Origin: a virus
Taxonomy: Duplodnaviria > Caudoviricetes
Virus record (IMG/VR): IMGVR_UViG_3300021093_000004
Length of the DNA: 64,000 nucleotides
Strand: one strand, 5' to 3'
Shown: positions 2,050 to 60,908 of the stretch, piece by piece
How positions within the stretch are numbered: position 1 is the stretch's first letter
Layout: each line of letters starts with the position of its first letter
The notes under the pieces: model-generated
What the model saw: only the letters and a program-made list of their open reading frames with translations
What the model was told of the DNA's origin: nothing
Database searches by the model: none
Position numbers and translations under genes: made by a program

Positions 2050-3669
2050 ATGTTACCAACGCGAAGCAGCCGTACTGCGGTGTCTGGCAACGCTCGTCGC
2101 CGTCATCTGGTTGAAGGTGCGGGAGCCGGTCGCCGTCCAATTACGGAAGAAACCGATTTGCACAAGGCATCAGTTTTTCACGAGTCCAAGAAGAATGCAC
2201 TCGTCAAGAAGTGGTCCCCGGTGCTCAGCAAGTGCCGTGAAGTCACGCCGCAGAAATTCGGCTTGATGGCGGCAATTCTCGAAAACCAGTACAAGCACAA
2301 CAATCCGGAAAATCGCTCGGTCATCTTCGAAGACCAGACGACAACCGCGAACATCGCCGATTTTACTCGGTTCGCTCTTCCGCTCATCCGGAAGTCCTAT
2401 CCGAAGTTGATTGCTGACAATCTCGTCGGCGTTCAACCGATGAGCCAGCCAGCCAGCTTGATCTTCTACATCCGATATCGTTACGCTCTCACGAAGGGAC
2501 AGACGGTTGCCGGAACGCAGATCATGCGTCAGAACACCGCTCAAGGCTCTGCCCGTCAGAACGGTTGGGCACTTGACCCGTATTACTCTTCGCAAGAAGT
2601 TCGTGGCGAAGACGCGACGATTGTCGGTGGCACAGTGATTTCAGCGACTCTGGCCCATCGCCCGGTTCTCGCTGGAACGGTCGTGGTCGAAGCATTCGCC
2701 AGCGAAGCCGATGCAGGCCCGAACTGCGATGACGCAGTGCCTTGCTTGCGAGTTACCTTCGATGCGGACGGCAGTCCCGATACCGTGTTGGTTGGTGACT
2801 GCACTGAGTTCACCGCTAACATCTCTGTTGATACGGTTACTGCTGGTGCGACAACCTTCAACCACACAACCGGTGCAGTTCAGATCACTCTGAGTGCCGG
2901 TGTTTTCCCGGGTGGAGCTGTCGCACGGGTGAACTACGAGTACGATCTCGAAGCCAACCCGTTCCAGCCGGAAGTTACGTTGAGCATCGACAGCGATTCG
3001 GTCGCTGCTATCACCCGCAAGCTGAAGACCTCTTGGTCGCTGGAAGCCGCTCAAGACCTGAAGTCGGTGCACAACATCGATGCCGAGAGCACCTTGACGG
3101 ACTTGATGGCCGACGAAATGGTCGCCGAAATCGACCGCGAAATCATCAACGACTTGATCATTTCCGCCTCGATTCGTGCTGATCACAACTTCGCGACGGC
3201 AGCCGGTGCATCGGTCAACTTCACAGACCGCAACATCGCGTTGATGTACAAGACGCTCGAAGTCGCCAACATCATCCACCGCACCACTCTCCGTGGTCCG
3301 GCGAACTGGATGGTGATGAGTGCTGACATCTGCTCGAAGTTCGAGCAGTTGAATGACTTCCGTGCATCGGACGCCTTCACTACAGAAGGTGTGGATGTCG
3401 GCATCATGAACGTCGGCACGATCCAAGGCAAGATGCGGATTTACAAAGATCCGCTCTTCCCGAATTGCAAGATCCTGCTCGGATTTAAGGGCAGCAGCGT
3501 TCTGGATGCGGGCTACTTCTACGCCCCATACATTCCGTTGCTCAGCACGCCGACCGTTCTCGATCCAAACAGCTTCACGCCGAACAAGGGTATCATGACC
3601 CGATACGGCAAGAAGCTCATCGAAGACGGTGGTCTGTACTACGCAACCATCACGGTCTCTAACCTCTAA
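2050..3669 (+). CDS. gp23: T4 gp23-like major capsid protein
   Basis: KKWSPVL, GVQPMSQP, RKLKTSWSLEAAQDL, EIDREII, AGYFYAPYIPL, GIMTRYG motifs. Confidence 0.96.
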   Translation: MLPTRSSRTAVSGNARRRHLVEGAGAGRRPITEETDLHKASVFHESKKNALVKKWSPVLSKCREVTPQKFGLMAAILENQYKHNNPENRSVIFEDQTTTANIADFTRFALPLIRKSYPKLIADNLVGVQPMSQPASLIFYIRYRYALTKGQTVAGTQIMRQNTAQGSARQNGWALDPYYSSQEVRGEDATIVGGTVISATLAHRPVLAGTVVVEAFASEADAGPNCDDAVPCLRVTFDADGSPDTVLVGDCTEFTANISVDTVTAGATTFNHTTGAVQITLSAGVFPGGAVARVNYEYDLEANPFQPEVTLSIDSDSVAAITRKLKTSWSLEAAQDLKSVHNIDAESTLTDLMADEMVAEIDREIINDLIISASIRADHNFATAAGASVNFTDRNIALMYKTLEVANIIHRTTLRGPANWMVMSADICSKFEQLNDFRASDAFTTEGVDVGIMNVGTIQGKMRIYKDPLFPNCKILLGFKGSSVLDAGYFYAPYIPLLSTPTVLDPNSFTPNKGIMTRYGKKLIEDGGLYYATITVSNL

Positions 3670-4856: not shown

Positions 4857-5756
4857 ATGGCTACCAATTTTGATGATATTACGTTCGACGCACAATCGCA
4901 TACCTATAGGCTTGGTAATCAGGCTCTGATTCCTGTTACGTCCATTGTGAAATGGTTGACTCCAGAATTCCGTAGTGACGAAATGTTGGAAACAAAAGCC
5001 GCCACATCTGGAAGATCGAAAGCGGATATCCAAGCCGAATGGGATTCGAAGCGTGATATTGGATTAGACAAAGGTACGCGGGTCCACAATTATATCGAGA
5101 ATGTTCTTGAAGGACGTGATCCGCGTTTATTGCTTTCTGTCAACGACCATTTACATGAAATGAAACAATTTGACATCGCCTGGGGGCGTATGTGCTCCAG
5201 ATTGTCAGCGAAATTTGATCGTAAGGAGTGGACTGTTGGTGATGCTGAATTAGGTGTTGCTGGGCGAGTGGATGCTATTTTACGGATCGTTATTGAATCC
5301 GAAGAAAAGCGATGCTTGTTCGACTGGAAGACTGGGAAATTCATGGTTCGGAAGTATGCTCGTGAAACGATGCTTCCGCCATTTGATGATCTTCCATGTT
5401 GTGAAGAAATTAAATATAGTATTCAGTTGAGCCTATATCGCTTGATTATCGAACGAAATACCGATGAGCGATTATTCAATGGATTTATTCTACATCTCCC
5501 TGCCGAATATCAACACAATCTTTACAATGTAATCGATTTGCGAGAACGTCTTGAAACGTGGCTGCTTAAAATGCGGGCAGAAGGGCGTCTAGGCGATCCA
5601 GAGGGCGACAAGAAAGCCTTGCGAGTGGCTAAATCTCTGGATCAATTCGATGATGATATTCTTCGAATTCTGTCGCCGCAATCTCGCAAAAAATTGTTAT
5701 TGAAAGCGGCGAAGTTGTTAAAGCGTGGCCAGCAATATTTTAATGAGCCGACATAG
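4857..5756 (+). CDS. PD-(D/E)XK exonuclease (YqaJ/Cas4-like fold)
   Basis: GTRVH, AGRVDAI, FDWKT, QLSLY motifs. Confidence 0.8.
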   Translation: MATNFDDITFDAQSHTYRLGNQALIPVTSIVKWLTPEFRSDEMLETKAATSGRSKADIQAEWDSKRDIGLDKGTRVHNYIENVLEGRDPRLLLSVNDHLHEMKQFDIAWGRMCSRLSAKFDRKEWTVGDAELGVAGRVDAILRIVIESEEKRCLFDWKTGKFMVRKYARETMLPPFDDLPCCEEIKYSIQLSLYRLIIERNTDERLFNGFILHLPAEYQHNLYNVIDLRERLETWLLKMRAEGRLGDPEGDKKALRVAKSLDQFDDDILRILSPQSRKKLLLKAAKLLKRGQQYFNEPT

Positions 5757-6295: not shown

Positions 6296-7321
6296 TCCGG
6301 GCGTTTGTGTATTTCGAGCGATCTTGTCTTTGTCGATTCTCAGATTTGTGATAATATTTGTCATTCGTTCAATCATAAATCCCAATAATACTGCCGCGTC
6401 TGGAAAAACGATCCTTTCGGCACTTGAATGGCTGATATCTAGCTCGTTCCACAGTTCAATATTCTGCATTACTGTGGTTTGATATCCTCTAATTACTCTG
6501 GCTAGACCACAAATATTCTCACATTGTATAGGATTTCGCTTGTGCGGCATGCTGGATGATCCGACTTGGTTTTCTTCAAATCCTTCTGCCATTTCTTCTA
6601 TTCCGCTTTGTGATAATAGCCGAATATCGGTTGCAATTTTCGCGATTGCACTTGCCAATAATGCCCATTCATTCATGCGTTCTGCATAGATGCCACGGTG
6701 GATGATCTGCCCATCATACAAGCCTTCGACGAGATTCAGTTTAGACAGCGTGTTTATAACGACAGCACGATTGACATACTTTAGTGATCCTACACTATCC
6801 GCCAATCGTCCGTAATAAGCACATTTGAATGTTCCGTACCTGAGAATTGTGTGCAAATATGTATCGAACTTTTGGCTGAGTGGCATTAGTTCTGCGGCCT
6901 GCCCATGAGTTCGTCCCACGATCATAATTCCATCACACTCAGAGATTTTCTGCTTGAGTATAGATACGAGTGCTCGCAAGAGATCAGTGATAACTTCATT
7001 GCTGGCACGGATCATCATAGAAAAAGCGGTGTCAACAATGTCCGATGAAGTCAAACCATAATGCACGAATCGGCTGAATAATGGATCAGTTTCGTGTACT
7101 TTCGATTCGAGCCACTCAACGAATGCGACTACATCGTGTTTCGTTTGCATTTCTCTCGATTGGATGTCATCGATCCACGATGACTCGAAATGATCAGGGG
7201 CGAGAATGGAGACGGCTTTTAGTTCTGACAGAAATGATAATTCAATTTGCGTCCATACAAGGTATTTATTGCCAATGGACCAAATTTCTGAGATTTTTGG
7301 GTGATCGTATCGTGGTAACAT
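6272..7321 (-). CDS. purB: Adenylosuccinate lyase, C-terminally shortened
   Basis: MLPRY, HDVVAF, HYGLTSSD, GRTHGQAAE, GSSSMPHKRNP signature. Confidence 0.9.
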   Translation of the reverse strand: MLPRYDHPKISEIWSIGNKYLVWTQIELSFLSELKAVSILAPDHFESSWIDDIQSREMQTKHDVVAFVEWLESKVHETDPLFSRFVHYGLTSSDIVDTAFSMMIRASNEVITDLLRALVSILKQKISECDGIMIVGRTHGQAAELMPLSQKFDTYLHTILRYGTFKCAYYGRLADSVGSLKYVNRAVVINTLSKLNLVEGLYDGQIIHRGIYAERMNEWALLASAIAKIATDIRLLSQSGIEEMAEGFEENQVGSSSMPHKRNPIQCENICGLARVIRGYQTTVMQNIELWNELDISHSSAERIVFPDAAVLLGFMIERMTNIITNLRIDKDKIARNTQTPGLSVINHM

Positions 7322-7373
7322 TTTCTTCTCCGATAACTTTTTCTAGCTTTAAAACTTTGGAGAGGTCAGTTGA

Positions 7374-7565
7374 ATGTATGTAATTTTTGATAATCTAACC
7401 GGGAAATATTATACCGGTAATGGTTGGAATGCTGCATTGAAGCTAGCTCTTCAGCAAACTAAACTTCGTGCTGAAGAATTAGCTGAATCGATGAATATGC
7501 ATGTTGCTCGTGGATGGATCAAAGGCGAATTCGTGTTGATTGACTACGATTCAATAGATAATTGA
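7374..7565 (+). CDS. Small hypothetical protein
   Basis: ORF overlapping the start of the next gene by 4 nt. Confidence 0.45.
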   Translation: MYVIFDNLTGKYYTGNGWNAALKLALQQTKLRAEELAESMNMHVARGWIKGEFVLIDYDSIDN

Positions 7566-8278
7566 TGCTCCAACACAAACGAAACGAACGATGGGAACCG
7601 TCTGCCGACCAACTCAGGCAATCGATCAAGGAGCGGACATTACAGATACTTGGCGGTAGCTTAGAATTTCCTACTGATCATCGTCTTCGATATCTCCTTG
7701 ATAATATTGAATGCAATCAATTAACTGCTGTTGAATTCGGATCATGGCATGGTTGGCATACCGCCACGCTATCCAGAAAGTTTCGGCATGTGATTGCCGT
7801 CGATGCCCGCCCCACCAATGTCGCATTTGCCCTATTGAGGCTAAAATTGTTGGGCATTAATAATGTTGATGTAGTTTTATCCGATGTTCAATCATTTGAA
7901 TTTAACTGTGACGTTCTAGTTCATATCGGGGTTTTATATCATTTGTCATTCCCGATCAAGCATTTATACCATGTGTTGCCAAAATGTCATACTATCTGCC
8001 TCGATACCCATATTGGCGACGAGGACCGTCCTCATTTGACGCCATCATATGAAGTGTACAATGATGAGATATATTATGGCAAAAATTTCCCTGATGGTGA
8101 CTGGGATGATGCGTTGAGTGGAGTTTGTGGTACTAGTTTTTGGCCTAATTTGGCTGAGATTCATCGTGTTCTTAATAATTTGCGATTCAAGATTTTACAC
8201 GAACATCGGCATATGGTTGATCCTGGCCCGCGTGTGACTATTGTCGCTTCGAAACGATGCGGCAGGATTCTCATGTGA
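7562..8278 (+). CDS. Class I SAM-dependent methyltransferase
   Basis: AVEFGSWHG, VIAVDAR, GVLYHL motifs. Confidence 0.75.
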   Translation: MMLQHKRNERWEPSADQLRQSIKERTLQILGGSLEFPTDHRLRYLLDNIECNQLTAVEFGSWHGWHTATLSRKFRHVIAVDARPTNVAFALLRLKLLGINNVDVVLSDVQSFEFNCDVLVHIGVLYHLSFPIKHLYHVLPKCHTICLDTHIGDEDRPHLTPSYEVYNDEIYYGKNFPDGDWDDALSGVCGTSFWPNLAEIHRVLNNLRFKILHEHRHMVDPGPRVTIVASKRCGRILM

Positions 8279-10071: not shown

Positions 10072-10144
<73 letters not shown>

Positions 10145-10215
10145 CTTGAGGAATCATTCGTTCAATTTAATCGAAAACTAGCAACGATTGGTAAGCAAGA
10201 TTCAAGCATGATCCA

Positions 10216-10461
10216 ATGTGTTGGACCAGCGACGGTTATAAGGACACTATTCGATATTGGCAGACCGGCAACAAAGACCTGGATATTCTGCTGAAGGGCG
10301 TTGGAGAAGTCAGTGAACAAGTATGTCTAGACTTCGGCTGCGGAATAGGAAGGCTGACTATTCATGCCAAAGAAGCATTCAGGAAAGTACATGGAATTGA
10401 TATATCAAAAACGGTTATTGATATAACCAAGAATAACGAAAGTGATTCATTAGACACCTGA
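10216..10461 (+). pseudogene. Truncated class I methyltransferase
   Basis: CLDFGCGIGR and GIDIS motifs, then an early stop. Confidence 0.6.
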
Positions 10462-10503
10462 GTATATAGAAATTGTTCGACTCTTGTTAGATTTACAGAA
10501 ATC

Positions 10504-10731
10504 ATGATCCACGAGTTCAACAAGCCAATACCTGTAGTCGTTGAAGGTAACAAAACAGGTTATGCAATTTATGTCCAATCTTCAGGCATGTTTGAGAATG
10601 ATGTGTGGTGCGTCGTCCATTGTGATGGCGGAATAGTTAGACACTACACTACTGACCAGATCAGGGTTTACCAAAATCTGACATTTAATATCAAGAAATC
10701 AGGTGGTCAGACGCAGGAATGTCAAACATAG
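10504..10731 (+). CDS. Phage hypothetical protein
   Basis: Compact ORF with GYAIYV, ENDVWCVV, VRHY segments. Confidence 0.55.
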   Translation: MIHEFNKPIPVVVEGNKTGYAIYVQSSGMFENDVWCVVHCDGGIVRHYTTDQIRVYQNLTFNIKKSGGQTQECQT

Positions 10732-10844
10732 CATTGGAGGTTACTATGACATTCAAAGAGCGATTCGTTGTTGGTCTCGAACAACCCTGAATCGCTTTGG
10801 CTACCAGAGATGCACAAATGGGCCGATGTTCATGAAGGATAATT

Positions 10845-11567
10845 ATGTCAGATCCCATATGGGTCGGTTCTCTCGACGATATTCGACATGGCGAAGCTGC
10901 ATTAGCGGCTATCAAAGAACAAAGTGACGTCGATCGCTGGGTCGATGGTCAAGGTATCATTCAAGTTGATAGAAATAGATGGGAAGCCGCCCAAAAGTTC
11001 GAACGACAAGGCTGGATGAACGCATGGGCCTCTGATTCTGATGATCGCAGCCGCGAGCACCACCAATTGTTTGATGGCTATAATGCAGTTCCACCAAATC
11101 TTGGTAACATATTAGAAGTTGGCTGTGGTCCGTTCACTCAAACGCGGACGATCTTATCTGCCCGCTCTGCAACTTCGATTACTCTACAAGATCCGTTGAT
11201 TAACGACTATCTTCATCATCGGCATTGTAGTTATACCAATCGCCGATTGCATGATATTCCGGTGACGTTAGTCCCAATGATGCTTGAGTATTTCACACCA
11301 CCGGAAGAATTCGATACTGTGGTGTGTATCAATGTTTTGGAGCACACCATGGACGTGAAAGTGTGTCTTCAACATATGCTCGCGGCACTGAAGCCGGGCG
11401 GAATATTGATTTTTGGGGAGCGAATTTACGACGACTTCGATCCTACGAGATTATATTGTATCGGGCACCCCATTCGGATTTGCAAAGCGATTGTTGACGA
11501 ATTCAAAAAGAATTTCAGGATGCTTTTTGAGCGTAGTGATAATGGCTATTTCATAGGTCAGAGATGA
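10845..11567 (+). CDS. Class I SAM-dependent methyltransferase
   Basis: ILEVGCGP, FDTVVCINVLEH, LKPGG. Confidence 0.8.
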   Translation: MSDPIWVGSLDDIRHGEAALAAIKEQSDVDRWVDGQGIIQVDRNRWEAAQKFERQGWMNAWASDSDDRSREHHQLFDGYNAVPPNLGNILEVGCGPFTQTRTILSARSATSITLQDPLINDYLHHRHCSYTNRRLHDIPVTLVPMMLEYFTPPEEFDTVVCINVLEHTMDVKVCLQHMLAALKPGGILIFGERIYDDFDPTRLYCIGHPIRICKAIVDEFKKNFRMLFERSDNGYFIGQR

Positions 11568-11634
11568 GTCTCTTTGACATATGAACCAGTGGGCACTTGT
11601 TTTAACATACTCGCTCCACGTGTTAGGAGCGTAT

Positions 11635-12243
11635 ATGAACCTTTTCATACTGAATGTTGATCCACGTCAAGCGGCTATCGAGAACTGCGATAAGCATGTT
11701 TGTAAGATTATCCTCGAAGCCGCCGATATGTTGTGTTTAGCTCATTGGCACTTCGATTTTCCACGCATCGCACAAGCCCCGCAGATTCTTAGAGAATCTC
11801 GAATGGTTGTCAATGACAAGGGCACCCATCGGTGCGTTTGGCGGTATCGCCCCCAGAGTCAGAATAACAATCATGTTAGTGTCTGGGTCCGCACGAGTCT
11901 TGAAAATTATCGTTGGACAGGGCAGCATGGTCTGGCACTTTGTGACGAATATGAACGTCGCTATGCACACACATTGCGTAAGAAGGGTTTACTGCATCAT
12001 CAGACCCGACCAATTATGGAGTGGTTCGCGAAGAATGAACCACCGATCCAGTCTGTTGACAGAACGCCTTTTCGCCAAGCGGTAGCAGAAGATTGCTACA
12101 ATTCCGACATTGTTACTGCATATCGTGAATATTATGTGAGATACAAGGTACGATTTGCTAAATGGCGATTGGGTAATGTACCAGAATGGTTTACGGATGG
12201 TGTAAGGGCAAATCTTACTTCTTTTCCATCTTCCGCAACTTAG
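11635..12243 (+). CDS. Pyrimidine-dimer DNA glycosylase (DenV-like) family protein
   Basis: MNLFILNVDP, CDKHVCKIILE, W..TSLENY.W, AYREYY, FAKW. Confidence 0.7.
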   Translation: MNLFILNVDPRQAAIENCDKHVCKIILEAADMLCLAHWHFDFPRIAQAPQILRESRMVVNDKGTHRCVWRYRPQSQNNNHVSVWVRTSLENYRWTGQHGLALCDEYERRYAHTLRKKGLLHHQTRPIMEWFAKNEPPIQSVDRTPFRQAVAEDCYNSDIVTAYREYYVRYKVRFAKWRLGNVPEWFTDGVRANLTSFPSSAT

Positions 12244-12374
12244 TATAAATCTTTCGGATTTTCTTTGAGATGATCTTTCGCGATTTCTTTGGCGACTCTG
12301 CTGTCTGATGTCTGTTCTAATTTGGTTTCGATTCTCATTCGAAGTTGTTCGGGATCGAATTTACGTAGTCGCAT
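12215..12374 (-). pseudogene. Frameshifted small protein, DUF5661-like
   Basis: QLRMRIETKLEQTSDSRVAKEIAKDHLKENP; a 1-nt shift restores YTKLRKMEKK*. Confidence 0.55.
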
Positions 12375-12378
12375 AAGC

Positions 12379-12834
12379 TTATAACGAAACGTCTTCATCA
12401 GTCAAATAATAGGTAGCTCCGAAACCCTCACGAAATCCGTGCTTTTTATAGATTTGGGCAGACCCTTCCGTCGAAGATAGGTACAATCCAGCCCCATGGT
12501 CTGCGGCTACGGACTTTAAACCTCTTATGACTTCTGATCCAATTCCAGGATGGGCGGTTGCTAAACTTCCTATTCTTAAATAATCGCCCTTGGGCATCCC
12601 TTCAGAGTCTCCATGATCTGGTGCTTTCCAGAGACTAGCCACTCCTACAAGCTTGCCGCTGTGATCTCTAAATGCATGAACATCGAACCATTTCGGAGAA
12701 TCACCTGTGGCAGCCGATAGGGCTCGTTGCAATCTTTCTCCGTCTGGAAACGAATTTAGAATTTCATATACGATTGTTCTTCCATCTAACACTTGACTTC
12801 GAAGCCTATTTTCATCTATTATTCGTAGTCGCAT
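12379..12834 (-). CDS. GNAT-like acetyltransferase with MRLRIIDE N-terminus
   Basis: LVGVAS, IGSLATAHPGIGSEVI, IYKKHGF; start set at ATG 12834. Confidence 0.6.
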   Translation of the reverse strand: MRLRIIDENRLRSQVLDGRTIVYEILNSFPDGERLQRALSAATGDSPKWFDVHAFRDHSGKLVGVASLWKAPDHGDSEGMPKGDYLRIGSLATAHPGIGSEVIRGLKSVAADHGAGLYLSSTEGSAQIYKKHGFREGFGATYYLTDEDVSL

Positions 12835-12870
12835 ACTGGCCCGTTTCCTATCCTGGGCGGTCACACTTAT

Positions 12871-12944
12871 GCCGCTATCAGCTAGAAACCAAGGCTACCC
12901 GGTTCTAAGCCGGGTAACGGTGGGTTCGAATCACCATAGCGGTA
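12871..12944 (+). tRNA. Amber (CUA) suppressor-like tRNA
   Basis: Acceptor GCCGCTA/TAGCGGT; anticodon arm CCCGG-TTCTAAG-CCGGG; TTCGAAT present; D-loop lacks GG and T-stem is irregular. Confidence 0.72.
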
Positions 12945-12947
12945 TAC

Positions 12948-13018
12948 GTGACTGCAACTCAGCGGTATTAGAGCACCGCCTTGATAAGACGGGGGTCGTT
13001 CGATCCGGACCAGTCGCA
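12948..13018 (+). tRNA. Degenerate tRNA-Ile(GAT)
   Basis: Acceptor GTGACTG/CAGTCGC; anticodon loop TTGATAA; shortened, irregular T-arm. Confidence 0.55.
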
Positions 13019-13522
13019 CTAGATGGTTTTACGCCGTGGAAGATGCTTAGTTTTAGGTCGTGGCTTCTTCTTCCCGAACTTCAAGCCATGAGGACCGGGG
13101 GTTTGGGATTCCACGACTTCAGACTGCATTACGGGTGATTCAACAACCGGCTCAACTGCGGCTGGAGCTTCAGTAGGGGGAATTCTACTAACCGGTTCTT
13201 CGGCGGGAGGCAATTCAGGCTCTGGTTCGCCCTTTGGCTCTGGTGGGGGAGTTCGTGTTTCTGCCACTTCTTGTGGCTTCTCTTGCGTCAGAACGGGATC
13301 GACGGGCTTCTGGGCCTCTTCGGTCTTAAGTGGCTTTTCGGACTTCGGAGAAGCCTCGACGAGCTTTTCGGTAGCCGGTTGTTCGGCCACGACAGGCTTT
13401 TCGGACTTCGGAGAAGCCTCGACGAGCTTTTCGGTAGCCGGTTGTTCGGCCACGACGGGCTTTTCGGCCTTAGTAGCTGGCTTATCGGAAGATTTTTCAG
13501 TAGGTTTCTTGGTTTCGTCCAT
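13019..13522 (-). CDS. Pro/Glu/Lys-rich repetitive protein
   Basis: 21-aa repeats EKPVVAEQPATEKLVEASPKS; basic C-terminus. Confidence 0.6.
   Translation of the reverse strand: MDETKKPTEKSSDKPATKAEKPVVAEQPATEKLVEASPKSEKPVVAEQPATEKLVEASPKSEKPLKTEEAQKPVDPVLTQEKPQEVAETRTPPPEPKGEPEPELPPAEEPVSRIPPTEAPAAVEPVVESPVMQSEVVESQTPGPHGLKFGKKKPRPKTKHLPRRKTI
13332..13467 (-). repeat. 63-bp coding tandem repeat (about 2.2 copies)
   Basis: Units start at 13332, 13395 and 13458. Confidence 0.88.
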
Positions 13523-13555
13523 TAATTCCTTCTCCTGTATAATAGATTTGCCCAT

Positions 13556-13636
13556 GTACATGTGGTGGAATGGTAGACACGCTGGTCTTAGGAGCCAGTG
13601 CCGTAAGGTGTGAGGGTCCGAGTCCCTCCGTCCACA
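13556..13636 (+). tRNA. Degenerate tRNA-Leu(TAG)
   Basis: Leu-type D-arm and long variable arm; two acceptor-stem mismatches; T-loop TCCGAGT. Confidence 0.6.
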
Positions 13637-13727
13637 CTATTTAAGTACCGTCAGCCGCAAGGCTACCATCGTGGAAATATCACGAAGGCGATGATCGTAG
13701 CCACAGTCCTTACTAAAGGCTCATAAT

Positions 13728-13810
13728 GGTCGTGTGGTGGAATGATAGACACGGGGGTCTCAAAAGCCGCTGATCGTAAGATCGTGAGGGTTTAACTCCC
13801 TCCTTGACTA
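13728..13810 (+). tRNA. Degenerate tRNA-Leu(CAA)
   Basis: Loop CTCAAAA; long variable arm; mismatches in acceptor and anticodon stems; T-loop TTTAACT. Confidence 0.62.
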
Positions 13811-13815
13811 TTATA

Positions 13816-13889
13816 GGGCGTTTAGCTCAGTTGGTAGAGCATCTGCTCGACACGCAGAAGGTGCACTGGTTCTACTCCAGTAATGCCCA
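13816..13889 (+). tRNA. tRNA-Val(GAC)
   Basis: Good cloverleaf; anticodon loop TCGACAC with C at position 33. Confidence 0.8.
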
Positions 13890-13900
13890 CTGTATTTTAC

Positions 13901-13982
13901 GGAGGGTATCCGAATGATCAGGAAGCCGTTTCGAAAACAGCCGGGTCGAAAGGCTTTTAGGGTTCGAATCCCTTGTCCTCCG
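13901..13982 (+). tRNA. tRNA-Ser(CGA)
   Basis: Loop TTCGAAA, long variable arm, TTCGAAT T-loop, G discriminator. Confidence 0.72.
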
Positions 13983-13990
13983 CTTGATAG

Positions 13991-14413
13991 GTGAATATGT
14001 ACGCAATATTATACAATGATGCTCAATTAAAAATCGCTGATATTCACGCTGAATGTGGGCATGAACGATGGGTGCCCTTAATGGTATATCGTCCAATTGA
14101 TGATCCAGGAGGTCTACCCAGACTAGTCCTATTTGATAATAAGGACTCAGCCTATCGGTTCGCGAGGCGCAACGTGACTTCTCAAATGGAGAAAAAAGGA
14201 TGGCTGCGTGGATCGGTATTTCTGACACGAGAAGACATTGAAGCAATCAAAGCACGTGGATGGATATTAGACATATTCCAATGGCCTCGGAAAATCATTG
14301 GAAATAAAGATTTATTGGTGAGCTTTGAAGTTCACGAATTCGCTGGCCGAGTAGATGTGAGACATATCCATGGTAAAACACGACCAGAGCTTCCCAAATC
14401 TGACGATCTTTGA
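13991..14413 (+). CDS. Hypothetical protein
   Basis: 140-codon ORF within the tRNA cluster. Confidence 0.55.
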   Translation: MNMYAILYNDAQLKIADIHAECGHERWVPLMVYRPIDDPGGLPRLVLFDNKDSAYRFARRNVTSQMEKKGWLRGSVFLTREDIEAIKARGWILDIFQWPRKIIGNKDLLVSFEVHEFAGRVDVRHIHGKTRPELPKSDDL

Positions 14414-14621
14414 TGATTTCTTGCCGCCAGAAGAACTCGCGTATTGGAAGGAACGAGTCGAAACCGGCGAAGAATCGGTCTGTTTATACGGGGACGACAT
14501 CAAAAAACACGGAATTATATAAGAGATGTCGAGAATTAGTCGGTCAATCCGACAGATGGTTCATTGCGATCTTCGATAGTATTGAAATGGCGATTGCCTC
14601 TTGAATATATTTCGTGATTAT

Positions 14622-14706
14622 GACCGGATGGTGGAATGGTAGACACTAGGGACTTAAAATCCCTTGCTCTGTAACGGGCGTGAGGGTTCGACTCCCTCTC
14701 CGGTCA
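14622..14706 (+). tRNA. tRNA-Leu(TAA)
   Basis: Perfect acceptor GACCGGA/TCCGGTC; AGGGA-CTTAAAA-TCCCT; TTCGACT T-loop. Confidence 0.9.
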
Positions 14707-14714
14707 CTGAATCT

Positions 14715-22117: not shown

Positions 22118-23650
22118 ATGGCAATCACAGCATTTCCCTTTAGCGCGGTCCTCGACGTGTCGGCAAACACGCTGCTTGGGAACAATACGGGCAGTGCTGC
22201 AGCAGCTATCGCACTGACGGCAACGCAGGTGCGGACGCTGCTGAGTGTCTACACGTCGGCACAGGTGGATACATTGCTAGCGGCATATCAACCGCTTGAC
22301 AGCGATCTGACGGCAATCGCAGCCCTGACGACTACCGCATTTGGCCGATCACTACTGACGCTAGCAGACGGGCCGGCGACTCGAACAGCAATTGGTGCAG
22401 GCACATCGTCGTTTAGCGGAGCTTACGGGGATTTGAGCGGGGTTCCTGCGACGTTCACGCCGTCGAGCCACACGCACGGCAACATCACAAATGCAGGAGC
22501 AATTGGCGCAACAGCAAGCCTGCCAATCATTACCGGGGCGTCTGGTGTTTTAACGGCGGGGGCATTCGGCACAACGTCCGGCACATTCTGTCAGGGCAAC
22601 GACAGCAGGCTATCGGATTCACGCACGCCGACAGCACACAAAACAAATCACGAAACAGGCGGCAGCGATGCACTGACCGCAGCCGACATCGGAGCAGCAG
22701 CCACAAGTCACACGCACGCAGCATCAGACATTACCAGCGGCACGATTGCTACGCCGAGACTCGCTAGTGGCACGGCTGACGCGACGACGTTTTTGCGTGG
22801 TGATCAGACGTGGGCAGTGCCAAGTGGTGGCGGCGGCGGTATTACAAGCTTGAATTCGCTGACGACCGCGACGCAAACATTTGCGGTCGGCACGACGGGT
22901 ACCAATGTTGCGTTTTCGTCGGCGTCTGGAGTTCACACCCTGAACATTCCCGACGCATCGGCATCCGCAAGAGGAGTCATTACTACAGGCACGCAGACTC
23001 TTGCAGGCCGAAAAACACTGAGCGAGGTGCATGTTGTTGGTTCGAGCAATCTCACGCAAATCGACATCACACCGGCAAGCGGGCAATCGGTCAATCAGCA
23101 AATTTGGCGCACAAGTGCCGGTGTGTCTGTCGGTGTCATTGATTCGGCGGGTCGTCCTGTATTTGGGAGCGGCAGTTGGACACTGAACAGTGCGTTCCAT
23201 GCTGTCGCGTGGTCTGGTGCTACAATTGGTTGGGCATCAGCTGCGGTGACCGGAACATCAACACATGACACTGGGCTGGTGCGTGATGGCGGTGCAGGGC
23301 TGGTCGGTCTGCGAGCGTCTACAACAGCACATACCTTGCGTGTCTATAATACCTACACCAGTGCTACCAGCCATGAGCGGCTGAACATTGCGTGGGCATC
23401 CAACATCTGCACCATTGAGACTGACAAAGGCTCTGCAGGCGGCACGCTGCGAGGTCTACGCATCGGCGGGTCTGCGTCAGCATTGGTCGGTATGTATGGT
23501 GCGACACCGATTGAGCAACCGACGACAGCGGTGGACTCGGCCAGCCATGAGCTATTTGCTGGCAACGCGCTCAGCGATGCTGACACTTTCGACGGCTACA
23601 CAATCGCGCAAGTGGTCAAAGCCCTGCGCAACATTGGAGTTCTTGCATAA
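22118..23650 (+). CDS. Tail fibre/spike-like protein
   Basis: A/T/G/S-rich; YQPLDSDLTAIAAL, HTHGNIT, HTHAASDI and TFLRGDQTW fibre-type motifs. Confidence 0.72.
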   Translation: MAITAFPFSAVLDVSANTLLGNNTGSAAAAIALTATQVRTLLSVYTSAQVDTLLAAYQPLDSDLTAIAALTTTAFGRSLLTLADGPATRTAIGAGTSSFSGAYGDLSGVPATFTPSSHTHGNITNAGAIGATASLPIITGASGVLTAGAFGTTSGTFCQGNDSRLSDSRTPTAHKTNHETGGSDALTAADIGAAATSHTHAASDITSGTIATPRLASGTADATTFLRGDQTWAVPSGGGGGITSLNSLTTATQTFAVGTTGTNVAFSSASGVHTLNIPDASASARGVITTGTQTLAGRKTLSEVHVVGSSNLTQIDITPASGQSVNQQIWRTSAGVSVGVIDSAGRPVFGSGSWTLNSAFHAVAWSGATIGWASAAVTGTSTHDTGLVRDGGAGLVGLRASTTAHTLRVYNTYTSATSHERLNIAWASNICTIETDKGSAGGTLRGLRIGGSASALVGMYGATPIEQPTTAVDSASHELFAGNALSDADTFDGYTIAQVVKALRNIGVLA

Positions 23651-24030: not shown

Positions 24031-25407
24031 ATGGCAACGCAGACAATCGAATTTGCAGCCCCATCCGGCCAGACAATCACAGCAAAACTATTCGCTGCGG
24101 GGTCTGATACGATTGAGGCAACAGCAGGCAGCGTCACAGCCAGAACAAATGCCACGGGCGTGTACGTCGCAACGGTGACGAGCACACTCGCAGGCGTGTA
24201 TCGATTAGTCGCTACAAACCCAGCCGGAACGCTGCTCGCTCAGTGGTGGGTCAGATTAGCGAATGCCGATGGCACTTACATCGCATATGAAACCCCAAAC
24301 GCTGACTATCTTGATGCAACAGTGAGCAGCAGGCTCGCAACCTCGGGCTATACAACACCACCGACAGCGGCAACGAATGCAACGGCAGTCAGAACGGAAT
24401 TGGCAACCGAATTAGGTCGCATCGACGTAGCAGTCTCAACGCGATCAACATTTGCCGGTGGTGCTGTAGCGTCGGTGACTGCAGGCGTCACAGTAAGCAC
24501 AAACAACGACAAAACCGGCTACGCACTGATTGCAGTAACCGGACTCGGTAATCAGACGGCAAACATCACAGGCAACGTGAGCGGCTCCGTGGGCAGCGTG
24601 ACGGGGGCCGTAGGAAGCGTGACGGGGGCTGTAGGCAGCGTGACAAACAGAGTCACGGCAAATACGGATCAATGGAACGGCGTGACTGTAACAGGAATGC
24701 CGATGCCCACCTATGTGCAGCCGACTGGTTTTCTTGCGGCGACATTTCCCGCAACGGTCAGCAGTTTTGCTGGCGGTGCTGTAGCAAGCGTGACAGGCAA
24801 TGTCGGCGGCAACGTCGTCGGGTCGGTTGGCAGCATTTCCGGAGTGACGTTCCCGAGCAACTTTGCAGCCCTTGGCATCAATGCTAGTGGTCACGTTTCG
24901 CGTGTTGTGCTGGTCGATACAACGACGGCAAACAGTGATATGAGAGGTACTGACGATGCACTGCTGGCAGCGAGCTACACGGCACCACTGAACACGGCAG
25001 GGACAGCGGCAGCGGTCTGGAACTCACTGCTAACGACTTACACGACTGCGGGCAGTTTCGGGGCAAGGGTGGTCAGGTCAACGGACAGCAACAGCAGCCT
25101 GCAGATCACTGGCAGCAATCATGCGGCGGCGGTGCTGCATGATGCCGAGCCGGACAGTATACCGGCGGACGCACTGGCGGCGGCAACTATCACGGCGATT
25201 CAAGCTGGGCTGGCGACGACGGCGAATCAGACGATCATCATTGACCGTGTGACGTTTGCTCTGACGGCACTGGTGGGGGCCTGCAGTGATGCACAGACGG
25301 CGGAGGAAACTTACACCCTGACGATCGGGGGAAGTACGTTCACGGTTGATTACAGCGGGCTGGATTCGAGCGGCAATCGCAGCACAACGACATTGAGCAA
25401 GGCGTGA
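24031..25407 (+). CDS. A/T/G/V-rich virion structural or fibre-like protein
   Basis: GSVTGAV repeats; YLDATVSSRL and TELGRIDVAVSTR segments. Confidence 0.6.
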   Translation: MATQTIEFAAPSGQTITAKLFAAGSDTIEATAGSVTARTNATGVYVATVTSTLAGVYRLVATNPAGTLLAQWWVRLANADGTYIAYETPNADYLDATVSSRLATSGYTTPPTAATNATAVRTELATELGRIDVAVSTRSTFAGGAVASVTAGVTVSTNNDKTGYALIAVTGLGNQTANITGNVSGSVGSVTGAVGSVTGAVGSVTNRVTANTDQWNGVTVTGMPMPTYVQPTGFLAATFPATVSSFAGGAVASVTGNVGGNVVGSVGSISGVTFPSNFAALGINASGHVSRVVLVDTTTANSDMRGTDDALLAASYTAPLNTAGTAAAVWNSLLTTYTTAGSFGARVVRSTDSNSSLQITGSNHAAAVLHDAEPDSIPADALAAATITAIQAGLATTANQTIIIDRVTFALTALVGACSDAQTAEETYTLTIGGSTFTVDYSGLDSSGNRSTTTLSKA

Positions 25408-30618: not shown

Positions 30619-31041
30619 ATGAAGGCGTTTGTTCTTGCGGCCCTGATGGGTCTGGGACTGATGGTCGGTCAGTTGAGCGGTCAGGAAGCGGCTCCCAAGC
30701 CGGTTGCTGAAGGCGAAGCGATTCACCTGTTTGAACACGTGAAGTACGTGGACCTGCACGAAATGGCTCCCTGTGCAGTGCCTAAGATCATTGAAGTCAA
30801 TGACCCTTGCGCCTGCGAATGCAAGTGCGAGTGCTCTGATCCGTGCAAGAAGGCCGGTGATGCCTGCGGCGCAGTCTGCGAGCAGAAAAAAGTACACATC
30901 CAGATCTGCATTCCAAAGTGCTACTGCGAGGAAGAAGTGATCTGCCGTCGCGATGGCGACCGCCTGCGTTACGAATACGGCGAATACGCCGTTGACGTGC
31001 GCGTCCGCAAGGGTTACATCGCTGTCGATTATCAGGACTAA
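30619..31041 (+). CDS. Secreted Cys-rich protein resembling a planctomycete-specific family
   Basis: Signal peptide; VKYVDLHEMAPCAVPKII..DPC...YGEYAVDVRV..VDYQD; GC-rich, host-like codons. Confidence 0.65.
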   Translation: MKAFVLAALMGLGLMVGQLSGQEAAPKPVAEGEAIHLFEHVKYVDLHEMAPCAVPKIIEVNDPCACECKCECSDPCKKAGDACGAVCEQKKVHIQICIPKCYCEEEVICRRDGDRLRYEYGEYAVDVRVRKGYIAVDYQD

Positions 31042-55161: not shown

Positions 55162-55644
55162 ATGGACGACTTCTTACCCAAAATCGGCGACCCAATCGGC
55201 GAACCCGCACCATCTGTATTTGAACTCGTGTTGGGCGACTATTTGAATTTCATAAACCCTAAAGATTACGGTATTGATGAACAGTCAATTAATCCGTCTG
55301 ACTATTTCGTCACAAGTGGCGATGCGGTCGAAAAAACCAAAGTCCTTGAGCGTGATCTTTGGAATCTTGCGGGTGAATTACGCAAGAAATGTTATAATAT
55401 CATAGCCGAGGAAAATTCCTGCACTTATGTACAAGCTCAGGAAATGTACCGTACGGGAACGCGCCCGCAAAACCCGGCAAAACTGAGAGATTTCGAAACG
55501 GAAATTTGGAAGTCTGCTGGCGCAAGCCGAAAACTACTGAATGCCTTAATTAAGGCAAAGGGTCCGAACATTTTTCTTGAAACCGAGTGGGATAGTCACC
55601 ATTTGCTGTGCATCCCTAAAAACCCACGGAAAGTGACGCAATGA
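55162..55644 (+). CDS. Hypothetical protein
   Basis: GGAG RBS; coupled to tmk. Confidence 0.6.
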   Translation: MDDFLPKIGDPIGEPAPSVFELVLGDYLNFINPKDYGIDEQSINPSDYFVTSGDAVEKTKVLERDLWNLAGELRKKCYNIIAEENSCTYVQAQEMYRTGTRPQNPAKLRDFETEIWKSAGASRKLLNALIKAKGPNIFLETEWDSHHLLCIPKNPRKVTQ

Positions 55645-56342
55645 GCGGATTGTATGTTATCTTCGAAGGTAACGACGGAGCCGGAAAAACGACTACTATG
55701 ACGGCTGTCGCGGAGGAAATGAAGCGACGGTATCCGAATTTCGATCCGATCCTGACCCATCATCCAGGAAGTACACCGCTGGGGTCATATTTAAGGAAAT
55801 TGGTCAAGTTTCCTGAACAAATTGATCCGAATATCCGTATTGATGACTTGTCTCGTCAAATGCTGTATATGGTCGATACGGTTAGCTTCATCCGGACACT
55901 GCTCGAACCTGCTTTGGAACAAAATAAGGCTATTTTTGCTGACCGAAGTTCATTCATCAGTGCTCTAGTTTATGGTCTGGCCGATGGTTTGAGTTTGCAT
56001 GATATCACGAGACTATTCGATATCATCACGCCGCCAAAGGCCAATCGACTATATGTGTTACAATGTCCATGGTTAGTAGGAAAGCAGCGAATTCAAGCTG
56101 ACCGTGGGACATTGGATCATTATGATCGTAAACCAGCCGAATTTTTCAACAAAATCGAACAGCTTTACCAGAACTTGATCACCGGCCCATCTGATCGAAC
56201 TATTCTTATTACACGGTCTGTGGCATTGGATGACATTGTGTATATTGACACCACCATGCCGCGAGACCGTGTTATAAAAACGATCGCTGATGATCTGTCT
56301 AGGTTGATTCAAGAACTAGGCGTTTTACCACCAACGGAATAG
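55641..56342 (+). CDS. tmk: Thymidylate kinase
   Basis: IFEGNDGAGKTT P-loop; HPG; FADRS. Confidence 0.88.
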   Translation: MSGLYVIFEGNDGAGKTTTMTAVAEEMKRRYPNFDPILTHHPGSTPLGSYLRKLVKFPEQIDPNIRIDDLSRQMLYMVDTVSFIRTLLEPALEQNKAIFADRSSFISALVYGLADGLSLHDITRLFDIITPPKANRLYVLQCPWLVGKQRIQADRGTLDHYDRKPAEFFNKIEQLYQNLITGPSDRTILITRSVALDDIVYIDTTMPRDRVIKTIADDLSRLIQELGVLPPTE

Positions 56343-56627
56343 GGAGATTACGCGATTGACAAGACGACGTATTGACGACTCGTTTTGTTGTTCGTCAGAT
56401 CTCGCAGTCTGGTGTGGAGGCTTAGCTTCAGGAGGATGAAGTTTAATCTTCATCTTTTGCAAGCGAAGCTCAGCCTGATATTCCGATTGTGGGATCGAAC
56501 TTGCAGATACGACCTGTAATCCTTGTTGACGGAGCCTTAGAGCGAGATGACTAAATGATGGGCTGGCGATAACACCATCCACCATTGCCATCTGATCGTC
56601 ATAAGCTCTAAATCTCCAGTAACTCAT
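56325..56627 (-). CDS. Small protein resembling the PilC/GspF N-terminal region
   Basis: WRFRAYD..VDGVIASPS...LALRLRQQGLQVVS matches the F.Y.A....G.I.A.....A...LR.QGL pattern. Confidence 0.5.
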   Translation of the reverse strand: MSYWRFRAYDDQMAMVDGVIASPSFSHLALRLRQQGLQVVSASSIPQSEYQAELRLQKMKIKLHPPEAKPPHQTARSDEQQNESSIRRLVNRVISLFRWW

Positions 56628-56643
56628 AACGTGGACACCACAA

Positions 56644-57168
56644 ATGACTCATGAAAATGTAACCGATGCATCCGATGGTTTGGAACAATACACCAGGATT
56701 CCAAGAAAAATTATACCTCTGGAGACTGTGATGGTCCGCAAAGTTCGAATGGAAGTCCGCCTGATTCATCCTCAGGCTAAATTGCCATTCCGAAAACGCG
56801 AAACCGACGCTGGATACGATATCTATTCCATCGAAAATATTGTCTTGCCCCCGAAAGGGGCCATATTAGTCAAGACTGGTATTGAAATATCTGCTCCACC
56901 AGGATATTATTACACCATCGAAGGCCGATCTAGCCTCTGGCGGCAAGGTGTTTTCCCGAATCGTGGTATCATTGATTCAACGTACTGCGGCGAAGTCGTG
57001 GTATCATTAGTCAATGTGAATGACTTTTCATTTGATGTCGTTGCAGGTGATCGTATTGCACAGATTATACTCAGCAGACAATATGATGCTGAGTTTGAGA
57101 TGGTTGAAGAGTTTAGCCCGCTGTATAACCAGCGGGGGACAGATGGATTTGGTAGTACCGGACGTTAG
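56644..57168 (+). CDS. dut: Trimeric dUTPase
   Basis: DAGYD, GRSSL, GIIDSTYCGE, GDRIAQ, RGTDGFGSTG. Confidence 0.93.
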   Translation: MTHENVTDASDGLEQYTRIPRKIIPLETVMVRKVRMEVRLIHPQAKLPFRKRETDAGYDIYSIENIVLPPKGAILVKTGIEISAPPGYYYTIEGRSSLWRQGVFPNRGIIDSTYCGEVVVSLVNVNDFSFDVVAGDRIAQIILSRQYDAEFEMVEEFSPLYNQRGTDGFGSTGR

Positions 57169-58388: not shown

Positions 58389-60908
58389 CTACGTCACTTC
58401 AAGTTGCCCATATGTAAATTCATTGAACAGCGTAATTTGGGTGCGGACATCGAACCGTCTGATCGTAGCACCGGGCCAAAGTCTGGCACCCATCTTTCCA
58501 AATGGACGATATTGATTAAACTCGATTGGATAGTACGGAGTCTCAATTGATACCGGAGTAGGAAGAGTCGCACTCAATGTTGTGCTCGGTGGAATTAACA
58601 ATTGGTTCCACCAGATCCAGACTTGATTATCACGTAACATGATCTCAAGTCTATTCCAGTATTCGTCGAGCGTGCCACCGATTTGAGCACCGCCGTCATA
58701 AACTACAAATCCGTCTGGTGATGCATCGGGTTGAATACCGACACCAGAGAATGTACCAGCTTGTGAGTAAATCGCACTTACGGCATAGCCCGGTGCCAAA
58801 CCGCGAACATAATCATCAACATCGTCACCGATGTCTTCTTCATATGGCCGGGACATATCCAACGTTCCGACCTTGAACTGTACTTCGACTAGCTCAGTTG
58901 CCGGATTGAACGAGAATTCGACTCGTACCACCGGGGTTGTGTACTCTTGATGCAGTAATTCAACAATGTCCCCAACATCACCAGGATATGCAATGTTGGA
59001 AGCAGAACCGCCAGCAAGAACAACTGTATCACAAGGAGCACCATAATCTGGACTGAAGCCACCAGTGGGTTCCGTGGGTTCCGTTGGAGATGTGCCCCCC
59101 GCTCCCGTGCTTTCCGCAAGAATCGAGGGGAAAGCGAGCTTTCGGTTGTAATTGTAGATCGCATTTTGATTTGAGACTGGAGAGAGAGTACGGATTGTTC
59201 CAAACGGCGGCAAATCGTGAAAATGAACGCCACATACTCTTATGTAGTGTGTACCATCGCTCAATCGGCCCTTACCAACAATACGCATATATTTTGAAGT
59301 GTACTCATCGACTGGAGACCGCAAGATAATATCGTAAGGAACGAAATTAGAACTTGAAGGTCGTCCGATATCGCATCGGATCAATGCGTTGCACAGATTG
59401 TGGCGATTCCACAACCATACTGGTCGCTCACTGTAGTCTGACGGCACTTCTGTAGCTGCGACGACCTTCAACCCCGGCATTGATGTATCGATTATTGCTC
59501 GATGCTGTAGGCTGATATCAGCATCTTCCGTTCCCGCAGTAGACGCGATATCGAAACTGACCAGTGGGTCGTCGAATCCGGTCAAACCCCAATGTGACCG
59601 CTCGAATTGTCGAATTGCCGACACTTGCACCGCAGCATCTTTATCCTCGCTGCCAGCACCGGGCATGATTTCTTCGCGAGCAATATCGACATCACCGAAT
59701 TGCAGATGCCCGACCCAAGTCCAAATGTGATTTGGATTTAGATTTGGCTTCTTTGAGAAATAATACCGACGAATCGGTTCTCCGGCAACTTCGCCAACCT
59801 TGAACCACCATAACTCCACCAGAGTTCCGATCGGCAGTAGATCGATGGTGCCGTCTAAAATCAATGATGATGGGTTTACCCCGGACGGTGGATTTTCCGG
59901 GTTGACGTATTGCCATAGATTACGTGCTGTGAAAGGTCCGCCGACCGCTCGTGCACCGTCCATATCCCATTCACGGACAGTATATTGGTTGGTAGCGAGA
60001 ATTGTACTGGTGTAATCGACGACAACTGCCATCTTCTTTGTGATGAGATGGCCTTTGTATAGTATTGTGCCGAGCAGATTTGGTTCGGACTCTGGTTCCA
60101 GTTCGAAACGGGTTTGGTTGCCGTCTTTATCCTTACCAGTGAACCACACGCATTCAACAATTCCGGTAGCTCCGGGAGTGAATGCCCACCCAATCTCTGT
60201 CTGCAACGTGTTGATCCGATCACGTTTGAGAATCAGCTCGTACTCTCCAGCACCCGGTACGATGGTATCATCATACCGTTTGAATATCATGGCCGGATGG
60301 TTGCCTTTGTTGTTTAACGTTGCGGCGACATTGTTCGGATCGGCAATCGTGGACTCTGGAAACAGGAATATTTTCATCTCTCCGTATGCATTGACGCCCG
60401 GCAGTTTGCCGCCGCATGTAGGAGGACGAATGCTTGCGATATCGGTTTCGTCTTGCACCCAGAAAATCTGTTGACATTCTTCGCAAGCACAATTCAGTGG
60501 AATTGGGCTGTCAACTGTGAAACGCACAACATTTCCGATGCGTTCGAGACTGATAAATTCGGTTCCGGCAGCAAGGATAATATCGCCTTGCATCCATCCA
60601 CCGTCGTCTGGGAATCCCGCTCCTTGGAATCCTAAGACACCAAGACGAGTTTGGAGTAATGCATCCAGTTTGCATTTGTCGTCGGCTGACATCAACCCCG
60701 GTGTGTCGCACGTGGCATTCGGTACCGGGTCTTCGGCGATGTGTGTGGGGCCGTGGAAGCTTGGAAATAGGACCTGTGATTCCTTGAAATATAATGCCCG
60801 CTGCTGCTCGTCGTATGAATATCCCGACGTGATTGCGTTTGGCCCTTCGACTTGTACGAATTGTCCATCTTTGAGGGCTGTGTGTGACGGGAGTTTTGTG
60901 ATTGCCAT
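58389..60908 (-). CDS. Large beta-rich virion structural protein
   Basis: PNATCDTPGLMSADDKCKLD fibre-type motif; upstream ATGCAAATTTA. Confidence 0.6.
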   Translation of the reverse strand: MAITKLPSHTALKDGQFVQVEGPNAITSGYSYDEQQRALYFKESQVLFPSFHGPTHIAEDPVPNATCDTPGLMSADDKCKLDALLQTRLGVLGFQGAGFPDDGGWMQGDIILAAGTEFISLERIGNVVRFTVDSPIPLNCACEECQQIFWVQDETDIASIRPPTCGGKLPGVNAYGEMKIFLFPESTIADPNNVAATLNNKGNHPAMIFKRYDDTIVPGAGEYELILKRDRINTLQTEIGWAFTPGATGIVECVWFTGKDKDGNQTRFELEPESEPNLLGTILYKGHLITKKMAVVVDYTSTILATNQYTVREWDMDGARAVGGPFTARNLWQYVNPENPPSGVNPSSLILDGTIDLLPIGTLVELWWFKVGEVAGEPIRRYYFSKKPNLNPNHIWTWVGHLQFGDVDIAREEIMPGAGSEDKDAAVQVSAIRQFERSHWGLTGFDDPLVSFDIASTAGTEDADISLQHRAIIDTSMPGLKVVAATEVPSDYSERPVWLWNRHNLCNALIRCDIGRPSSSNFVPYDIILRSPVDEYTSKYMRIVGKGRLSDGTHYIRVCGVHFHDLPPFGTIRTLSPVSNQNAIYNYNRKLAFPSILAESTGAGGTSPTEPTEPTGGFSPDYGAPCDTVVLAGGSASNIAYPGDVGDIVELLHQEYTTPVVRVEFSFNPATELVEVQFKVGTLDMSRPYEEDIGDDVDDYVRGLAPGYAVSAIYSQAGTFSGVGIQPDASPDGFVVYDGGAQIGGTLDEYWNRLEIMLRDNQVWIWWNQLLIPPSTTLSATLPTPVSIETPYYPIEFNQYRPFGKMGARLWPGATIRRFDVRTQITLFNEFTYGQLEVT

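Follow-up and report, generated by a model that had tools for sequence, protein, structure and literature searches.

Genes at the tmk–dut locus

The DNA analyzed here (the window) is a stretch of 64,000 nucleotides from a T4-like jumbo phage of lake-water metagenomes. The window carries the gene of the Gp23 capsid protein (2050–3669), a prohead protease gene, and six tRNA genes. Between the genes of thymidylate kinase and dUTPase lies a short gene on the opposite strand, and the three genes are arranged as follows.

55641–56342, plus strand: tmk, thymidylate kinase (PF02223, E = 5.8e-18; phrog_761)
56325–56627, minus strand: gene of a 100-aa protein (P0001) with its stop codon, starting with ATG (from the ORF list)
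56644–57168, plus strand: dut, dUTPase (PF00692, E = 2.7e-29; phrog_135)

The earlier note on this DNA had placed a 100-aa ORF antisense between tmk and dut, and both the position of the ORF (56325–56627, minus strand) and the PF02223 and PF00692 matches of its neighbors bear this out. The gene is antisense to both of them. It is convergent with tmk, with which it shares 18 nt (56325–56342) at the 3′ ends, and divergent from dut, with a gap of 16 nt (56628–56643) from ATG to ATG. The plus strand of the 300-nt gap between tmk and dut contains no ORF of at least 60 aa. Only one copy of the gene is present in the window.

A GGAG sequence is located 6 nt upstream of an in-frame ATG of dut at 56731 (codon 30; 56721–56733), and the Pfam dUTPase match in the protein starts at residue 45. 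A dut start at ATG 56731, which would give an intergenic region of 103 nt, was rejected because the long frame is kept in all relatives, where it ends up 13–17 nt from the 100-aa gene. Owing to this retention, the annotated start of dut probably stands, and the extra N-terminal part of its product seems to be genuine. Immediately beyond the dut block, the minus strand encodes an 839-aa protein (58389–60908) that matched no Pfam family and whose marginal PHROG matches are confined to residues 52–87.

No sigma-70-like promoter was found upstream of the 100-aa gene on its strand, nor was a terminator found for it. There is no enrichment of the T4 late motif TATAAATA either. The DNA upstream of the gene, including a TATAAT at 56710–56715, is not conserved among the relatives. 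A tmk–dut co-transcript, if made, would be fully antisense to the 100-aa gene; for this reason we infer that, if tmk and dut are co-transcribed, the 100-aa gene and tmk/dut are probably expressed at different times.

At 10072–14707, the plus strand carries a cluster made up of the six tRNA genes (Met, three Leu, Val, Ser). The Gp23-type major capsid gene (plus strand) has a GC3 of 0.67, as compared with about 0.4–0.45 for most genes of the window. Other GC-rich ORFs, at 22118–23650, 24031–25407, and 30619–31041, matched no Pfam family, and the first two had no tblastn match in the phage-record collection.

Conservation and selection

An exhaustive phmmer search of 1.84 billion representative sequences yielded 90 clusters at E ≤ 1e-3, each 69–134 aa in length; the family count of about 90 refers to clusters at 50% identity. 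Conservation at the protein level extends down to about 30% identity across these clusters. In the family alignment, the N-terminal 60 residues are conserved and are followed by a variable linker and then by a C-terminal helix. W4, Y6, A8, G18, L32, R33, Q34, G36, and Q38 show little or no variation, and the N-domain has the family motif YW-x-YRAYD ... G-V ... LRQ-x-GLQ. Comparison of the 100-aa gene with its 82%-identical orthologue at locus L001 gave a dN/dS of 0.086 at a dS of about 1.1. The gene is under strong purifying selection.

The genomic setting is conserved as well. Every relative with readable flanks shows the order dut / X / tmk, where X is the homolog of the 100-aa gene and lies on the opposite strand. 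The same locus was found at L001 (82% identity), L008 (54%), L018 (41%), L016 and L017 (39%), and L015 (37%), and the tight spacing with the neighboring genes recurs in L001, L008, L015, and L018. L015, which shares the dut / X / tmk arrangement, is a 408-kb IMG/VR phage contig (IMGVR_UViG_3300000976_000008). Its dut (6880–7983, minus strand) encodes a 367-aa fusion in which the dUTPase domain is preceded by about 200 aa rich in Cys, an N-terminal half that has a zinc-finger/HNH-type look by eye.

A scan of IMG/VR with the single 100-aa protein returned only one relative, no close relatives were found in the GTDB genomes, and tblastn against 50,697 phage records gave no match.

The low dN/dS at a dS of about 1.1 and the conservation of the protein to about 30% identity in 90 clusters argue against the reading that the frame is not a gene and arose by chance antisense to the tmk–dut spacer. 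So do the confident AlphaFold2 model described below and the plus strand of the gap, which is free of a competing ORF of at least 60 aa. Although a chance ORF would fit with the failure to find a recognizable promoter or a strong ribosome-binding site, and with the very tight packing against both neighbors, the conservation pattern effectively refutes this reading, and we regard it as hardly credible.

Domain architecture and predicted fold

The protein consists of the following segments, all encoded on the minus strand.

56493–56627, minus strand: N-domain, residues 1–45, beta-beta-alpha-beta (AlphaFold2 pLDDT 97–98, hhalign, Atlas fold search)
56439–56489, minus strand: helix alpha-2, residues 47–63, conserved, with the pattern Y-x-AE-x-RL-xxx-K (alignment, AlphaFold2, hhalign)
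56379–56438, minus strand: linker rich in Pro, Gln, and charged residues, residues 64–83, variable in length and sequence (pLDDT 57–70)
56328–56378, minus strand: basic amphipathic C-terminal helix, residues 84–100, a putative membrane anchor (AlphaFold2 helix 85–99)

AlphaFold2 run on the family alignment gave a model with a pLDDT of 89 overall and of 97–98 over residues 1–60. The predicted strands are 2–9, 15–22, and 38–45, and the predicted helices are 25–34, 47–63, and 85–99. The model thus begins with an N-terminal beta-beta-alpha-beta unit, as is characteristic of T2SSF_N, the N-domain (about 45–55 residues) of the platform proteins GspF and PilC. A shape search of the ESM Atlas pointed to the same domain: the 99 nearest models carry only two family sets, T2SSF with T2SSF_N and stand-alone T2SSF_N. 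An Atlas model with T2SSF and T2SSF_N superposed with a TM score of 0.54 over residues 1–65 and an rmsd of 2.4.

Foldseek searches against PDB and BFVD returned nothing at E ≤ 1e-3. The weak PDB neighbors are YkzG (RNAP epsilon; TM 0.74 by target), T7 Gp2, and phi29 p56, with Foldseek E-values of 0.06–0.2 and identities of 6–14% for YkzG and Gp2. In BFVD, many small uncharacterized phage proteins share the beta-beta-alpha-beta fold, none of them significant.

That YkzG and T7 Gp2 are the best, though weak, PDB neighbors raises the idea of an RNA polymerase binder that modulates host transcription as in T7. The resemblance is one of a similar small beta-beta-alpha-beta fold, with no sequence or profile similarity and no PHROG match at E ≤ 1. 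Moreover, the same two proteins were also found as neighbors of the PulF N-domain, where they were judged uninformative (PMC10790770). The putative membrane-anchoring tail, which the phage protein has and Gp2 and YkzG do not, would be an odd fit for such a function. On balance an RNA polymerase binder appears very improbable.

Homology to the N-domain of GspF and PilC

Since the fold alone is not diagnostic, the domain assignment rests on sequence profiles. BLASTP of P0001 against E. coli GspF aligned residues 4–37 with GspF residues 3–36 (E = 0.003), and hhalign of the family profile against E. coli GspF alone gave a probability of 84% (E = 7e-6, GspF residues 2–43). For an independent set, 26 planctomycete GspF N-termini were picked solely because they adjoin orthologues of one GspE. 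Against this set hhalign gave a probability of 97.3% and an E-value of 1.8e-11 over 62 columns from residue 1 of both. Against E. coli GspF, HofC, and five PilC/PulF matches, a set that is partly circular, it gave 98.5% and 1.7e-15. The similarity to T2SSF_N is significant in the profile–profile tests against E. coli GspF alone and against the independent planctomycete set.

The five matches came from a search for longer proteins among 5.8 billion sequences with a trimmed profile of 88 N-domains at E ≤ 10. All are 401–422 aa in length, contain PF00482 and PF28597, and are PilC or PulF wherever they are named. An earlier search for longer proteins at E ≤ 0.01 found nothing. The precomputed Pfam 38.1 annotation places PF28597 (T2SSF_N) faintly on P0002, which is 99% identical to P0001, and at E ≤ 1e-5 on the family member P0050. 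Searches of the 100-aa protein against PHROG (E ≤ 1) and against a Pfam library without PF28597 gave no family, and at E ≤ 10 a sequence-profile search of PDB brought up no relevant entry.

The resemblance to PilC/GspF N-termini that the earlier note had read from the sequence therefore stands well beyond chance, and the comparison with PilC N-terminal profiles that it had called for came out in its favor. Its estimate of the extent, the first ~45 residues, was too short, as the similarity runs to about residue 62. Residues 47–63 still align with the best planctomycete GspF N-termini, and profile positions 3–63 are matched in the GspF of genome G132. We conclude that residues 1–62 very probably represent a phage-borne, stand-alone homolog of the GspF/PilC N-domain.

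The protein is neither a whole platform protein nor a piece of one. As noted before, T2SSF domains are absent, with no PF00482 match at E ≤ 10. A platform protein has two T2SSF domains (Cyto1 and Cyto2) and three transmembrane segments, neither of which is found in this protein of only 100 aa, and all 90 relatives are short.

The phage protein and the cellular N-domain share the sequence pattern [FW]-x-Y-[KR]-A-x-D ... G-[IV] ... L-R-x-x-G, the beta-beta-alpha-beta fold, the extreme N-terminal place, and a net positive charge, and in both a flexible segment then leads to the membrane. They differ in that the phage copy is detached from the Cyto1-TM-Cyto2-TM core and carries an extra conserved helix alpha-2 and a putative C-terminal anchor of its own. 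In addition, the phage protein lacks the hairpin glycine that is G13 in the cellular set, and in helix alpha-1 the cellular D-A-D-S-x-x-x-A-R is replaced by a hydrophobic x-F-x-x-L-A-L.

Stand-alone bacterial T2SSF_N proteins in the ESM Atlas (clusters of 54–88 aa, with PF28597 on 49–97% of members) likewise consist essentially of the N-domain only. They are the nearest proteins by shape and by language-model features (0.84, to be read as a lead only), and some of them could be fragments of genes. When 603 genomes of three phyla were searched with the phage profile, every match lay at the N-terminus of a frame about 400 aa long, and no short free-standing gene was found.

The C-terminal helix

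Residues 84–100 follow the pattern S-I-R-R-x-V-x-R-V-I-S-L-F-R-W-W. The helix has a hydrophobic face made up of I86, L89, V90, V93, I94, F97, and W100, an arginine-rich opposite face, and an Eisenberg hydrophobic moment of 0.74. The earlier note had overlooked this helix. For this member, the absence of transmembrane helices that had been reported from the sequence is correct, since the highest Kyte–Doolittle value in a 19-residue window is 0.99. A true transmembrane segment (value above 1.6 in such a window) occurs at the position of the tail in 9 of 91 relatives, and the remaining tails form a similar basic amphipathic helix, often with S-I-R-R ... L-F-R-R. Because amphipathic and transmembrane tails replace each other at the same position, the C-terminal helix is probably a membrane anchor and the protein is probably membrane-tethered. 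The resulting layout of N-domain, flexible linker, and membrane resembles the setting of the native domain in PulF.

Many members share the tail S-I-R-R-x-[ILVW]-x-x-[ILV]-[IL]-x-L-F-R-[RK]. The tail could also be a specific protein-binding peptide, as its conservation exceeds the needs of a generic membrane-binding helix.

Planctomycete relatives of the domain

The top match in the whole-collection search, P0094, is a planctomycete protein of the PilC type. Its relatives at 59–67% identity were found only in Planctomycetota MAGs (Pirellulales, Thermoguttaceae, Planctomycetaceae), and the next ones, verrucomicrobial (36%) and deltaproteobacterial (33%), follow far behind.

A six-frame search with the phage profile was performed on about 200 genomes per phylum. 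At E ≤ 0.01, matches were obtained in 129 of 201 genomes of Planctomycetota (best score 46 bits), and about 48 of these 201 genomes were still matched at E ≤ 1e-4, as counted from the best E-value of each genome. Among the comparison phyla, 12 of 201 genomes of Verrucomicrobiota (best score 33.6 bits) and 14 of 201 genomes of a third phylum (27.6 bits) were matched. Among the three phyla compared, the nearest cellular N-domains are planctomycete. The host may be a planctomycete too, by a comparison of three phyla in which T2SSF paralogues inflate the planctomycete match rate. Three planctomycete genomes (G001–G003) contain 16–29 T2SSF domain matches each, which indicates numerous platform-protein paralogues.

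The best match, in G132, and the next ones, in G085, G110, G027, G058, and G023, are the GspF proteins of one orthologous gspD-gspE-gspF-gspG-pseudopilin cluster. In G132, this compact cluster of gspD (secretin), gspE, gspF, gspG, and a pseudopilin gene lies on the minus strand at 5071–12680 of L076 (G132:C34:46000-65000). Upstream of the secretin gene lie two genes without annotation (177 aa and 192 aa), which could be the L/M-like parts.

As the best-matching cellular N-domain belongs to a T2SS-type cluster, the term "pilus" may be too narrow for the target machine. We do not claim a T2SS in preference to a pilus as the target, since the PilC-type and T2SS-type N-domains of planctomycetes have similar medians (17.6 and 17.0 bits) and one T2SS-type planctomycete subclade alone stands out, at 29–41 bits.

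Possible function of the phage protein

The native domain has been studied in PulF, where it spans residues 1 to about 54 (Guilvout et al. 2023, PMC10790770). A flexible loop connects it with the core, and in every oligomer model it takes a peripheral place near the membrane; it does not co-evolve with other regions of PulF, and it touches anionic lipids in simulations (PMC10790770). The PulF N-domain is dispensable for stability, oligomerization, and basic function, but pilus assembly and secretion do not reach their full level without it; the N-domain is also dispensable in P. aeruginosa PilC and N. meningitidis PilG (PMC10790770). The contact with the ATPase has been modeled through the Cyto1 and Cyto2 domains, and the N-domain has no identified partner (PMC10790770). 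The piliation defect of a PilG N-domain mutant is suppressed by loss of PilT (cited in PMC10790770). We found no paper on T2SSF_N as such, and none describing a phage-encoded platform-protein domain came up in our literature searches.

Three phage inhibitors of pili offer a comparison, namely Aqs1 from DMS3, Tip from D3112, and PfsE from Pf4, the last being a peptide of roughly 30 residues. To our knowledge, none of them is a homolog of a machine component. All three are small phage proteins that attack the machine at its cytoplasmic or inner-membrane part in superinfection exclusion, which is the functional analogy behind the hypothesis considered here. No sequence relationship to them was seen for the 100-aa protein, which matched no PHROG family at E ≤ 1 and none of 50,697 phage records in tblastn. 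Aqs1 and Tip target PilB, and Aqs1 binds the N2 patch of PilB (PMC13436744), while PfsE is reported to bind PilC (PMC8764522).

The earlier note had started from the platform protein engaging the assembly ATPase and had proposed that the phage protein is a decoy which jams this ATPase in the host pilus. Such a mechanism presupposes that the N-terminal segment makes the contact. This premise is not established, as the modeled contact runs through Cyto1/Cyto2 (PMC10790770), and for that reason the proposed mechanism is not supported; a decoy of the N-domain could act on the machine, yet nothing directs it to the ATPase specifically. In a broader form, the protein would bind and jam the assembly ATPase of a host pilus or T2SS (PilB/GspE or PilT). 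The platform protein as a whole does contact the ATPase, Tip and Aqs1 do target PilB (PMC13436744), and the suppression of the PilG N-domain defect by loss of PilT indicates that the N-domain affects the balance of extension and retraction (PMC10790770). However, the modeled contact is through Cyto1/Cyto2, the N-domain is peripheral, near the membrane, and has no known partner (PMC10790770), and the sequence data single out no ATPase. A single complex prediction of the phage N-domain with planctomycete GspE (from G132) gave a score of 0.00, which is not evidence either way. We consider an ATPase decoy unlikely.

The reading that we favor, tentatively and at somewhat less than even odds, is a membrane-anchored competitor for the site that the N-domain uses in the T2SS or type IV pilus of the host. 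In this proposal, the phage protein would be tethered to the cytoplasmic face of the inner membrane by its C-terminal helix, and the tether together with the flexible linker would reproduce the geometry of the native N-domain hanging from the membrane-embedded platform. It would sit beside a host type IV filament machine (T2SS or type IV pilus; probably planctomycete) and occupy the site normally used by the N-domain of the platform protein itself. This occupation would lower or redirect filament assembly, and the outcome might serve superinfection exclusion or host takeover. What we infer here is the membrane tethering, the action on a filament machine, and the mechanism of competition.

By analogy, the precedent of small phage proteins that disable type IV pili (Aqs1, PMC13436744; PfsE, PMC8764522) is consistent with such a competitor. 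On the other hand, titrating the partner of a dispensable N-domain might have a mild effect only, and the binding surface may not be retained, since the surface of helix alpha-1 has diverged from that of the cellular domains. The beta-beta-alpha-beta fold is also common among small uncharacterized phage proteins.

Some of the same observations would suit a domain that was co-opted, with the T2SSF_N fold serving only as an all-purpose module in a role that has nothing to do with secretion or pili. The protein could then be a small membrane-associated adaptor or regulator, for example one that organizes enzymes of nucleotide metabolism or replication at the membrane, or it could bind lipids. Besides the diverged alpha-1 surface and the spread of the fold among small phage proteins, this reading would account for a gene invariably locked between tmk and dut, and the PulF N-domain binds anionic lipids in simulations (PMC10790770). 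Yet the gene lies on the strand opposite to tmk and dut and so would not be co-expressed with them, and the linkage may merely mark an old insertion point. Furthermore, the sequence homology is specific to the N-domains of T2SSF proteins and does not extend to other beta-beta-alpha-beta proteins. Co-option is a possible explanation, to which we give less weight than to the competitor.

The T2SSF_N domain and its short stand-alone forms are already known from Pfam and the ESM Atlas. What is new is the occurrence of T2SSF_N in a phage-specific and putatively anchored architecture with a conserved genomic address. It is conceivable, though doubtful at present, that inhibitors or modulators of a new class, which act on type IV filament machines through domain mimicry, are encoded throughout this clade of T4-like jumbo phages. 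If so, mimicry of a machine component would join the known means by which phages put pili out of action (Aqs1, Tip, PfsE).

Secretion systems and pilus systems alike have a conserved GspF/PilC N-domain, which is dispensable yet needed for full efficiency (PMC10790770). A free-standing, putatively anchored copy under strong purifying selection argues for a specific and targetable interaction of this domain. If the competitor reading is true, the phage protein would be a ready-made probe, or natural reagent, for finding the partner of the N-domain. As to the host of this uncultured group of phages of 200–400 kb, the domain adds one more modest hint, toward Planctomycetota.
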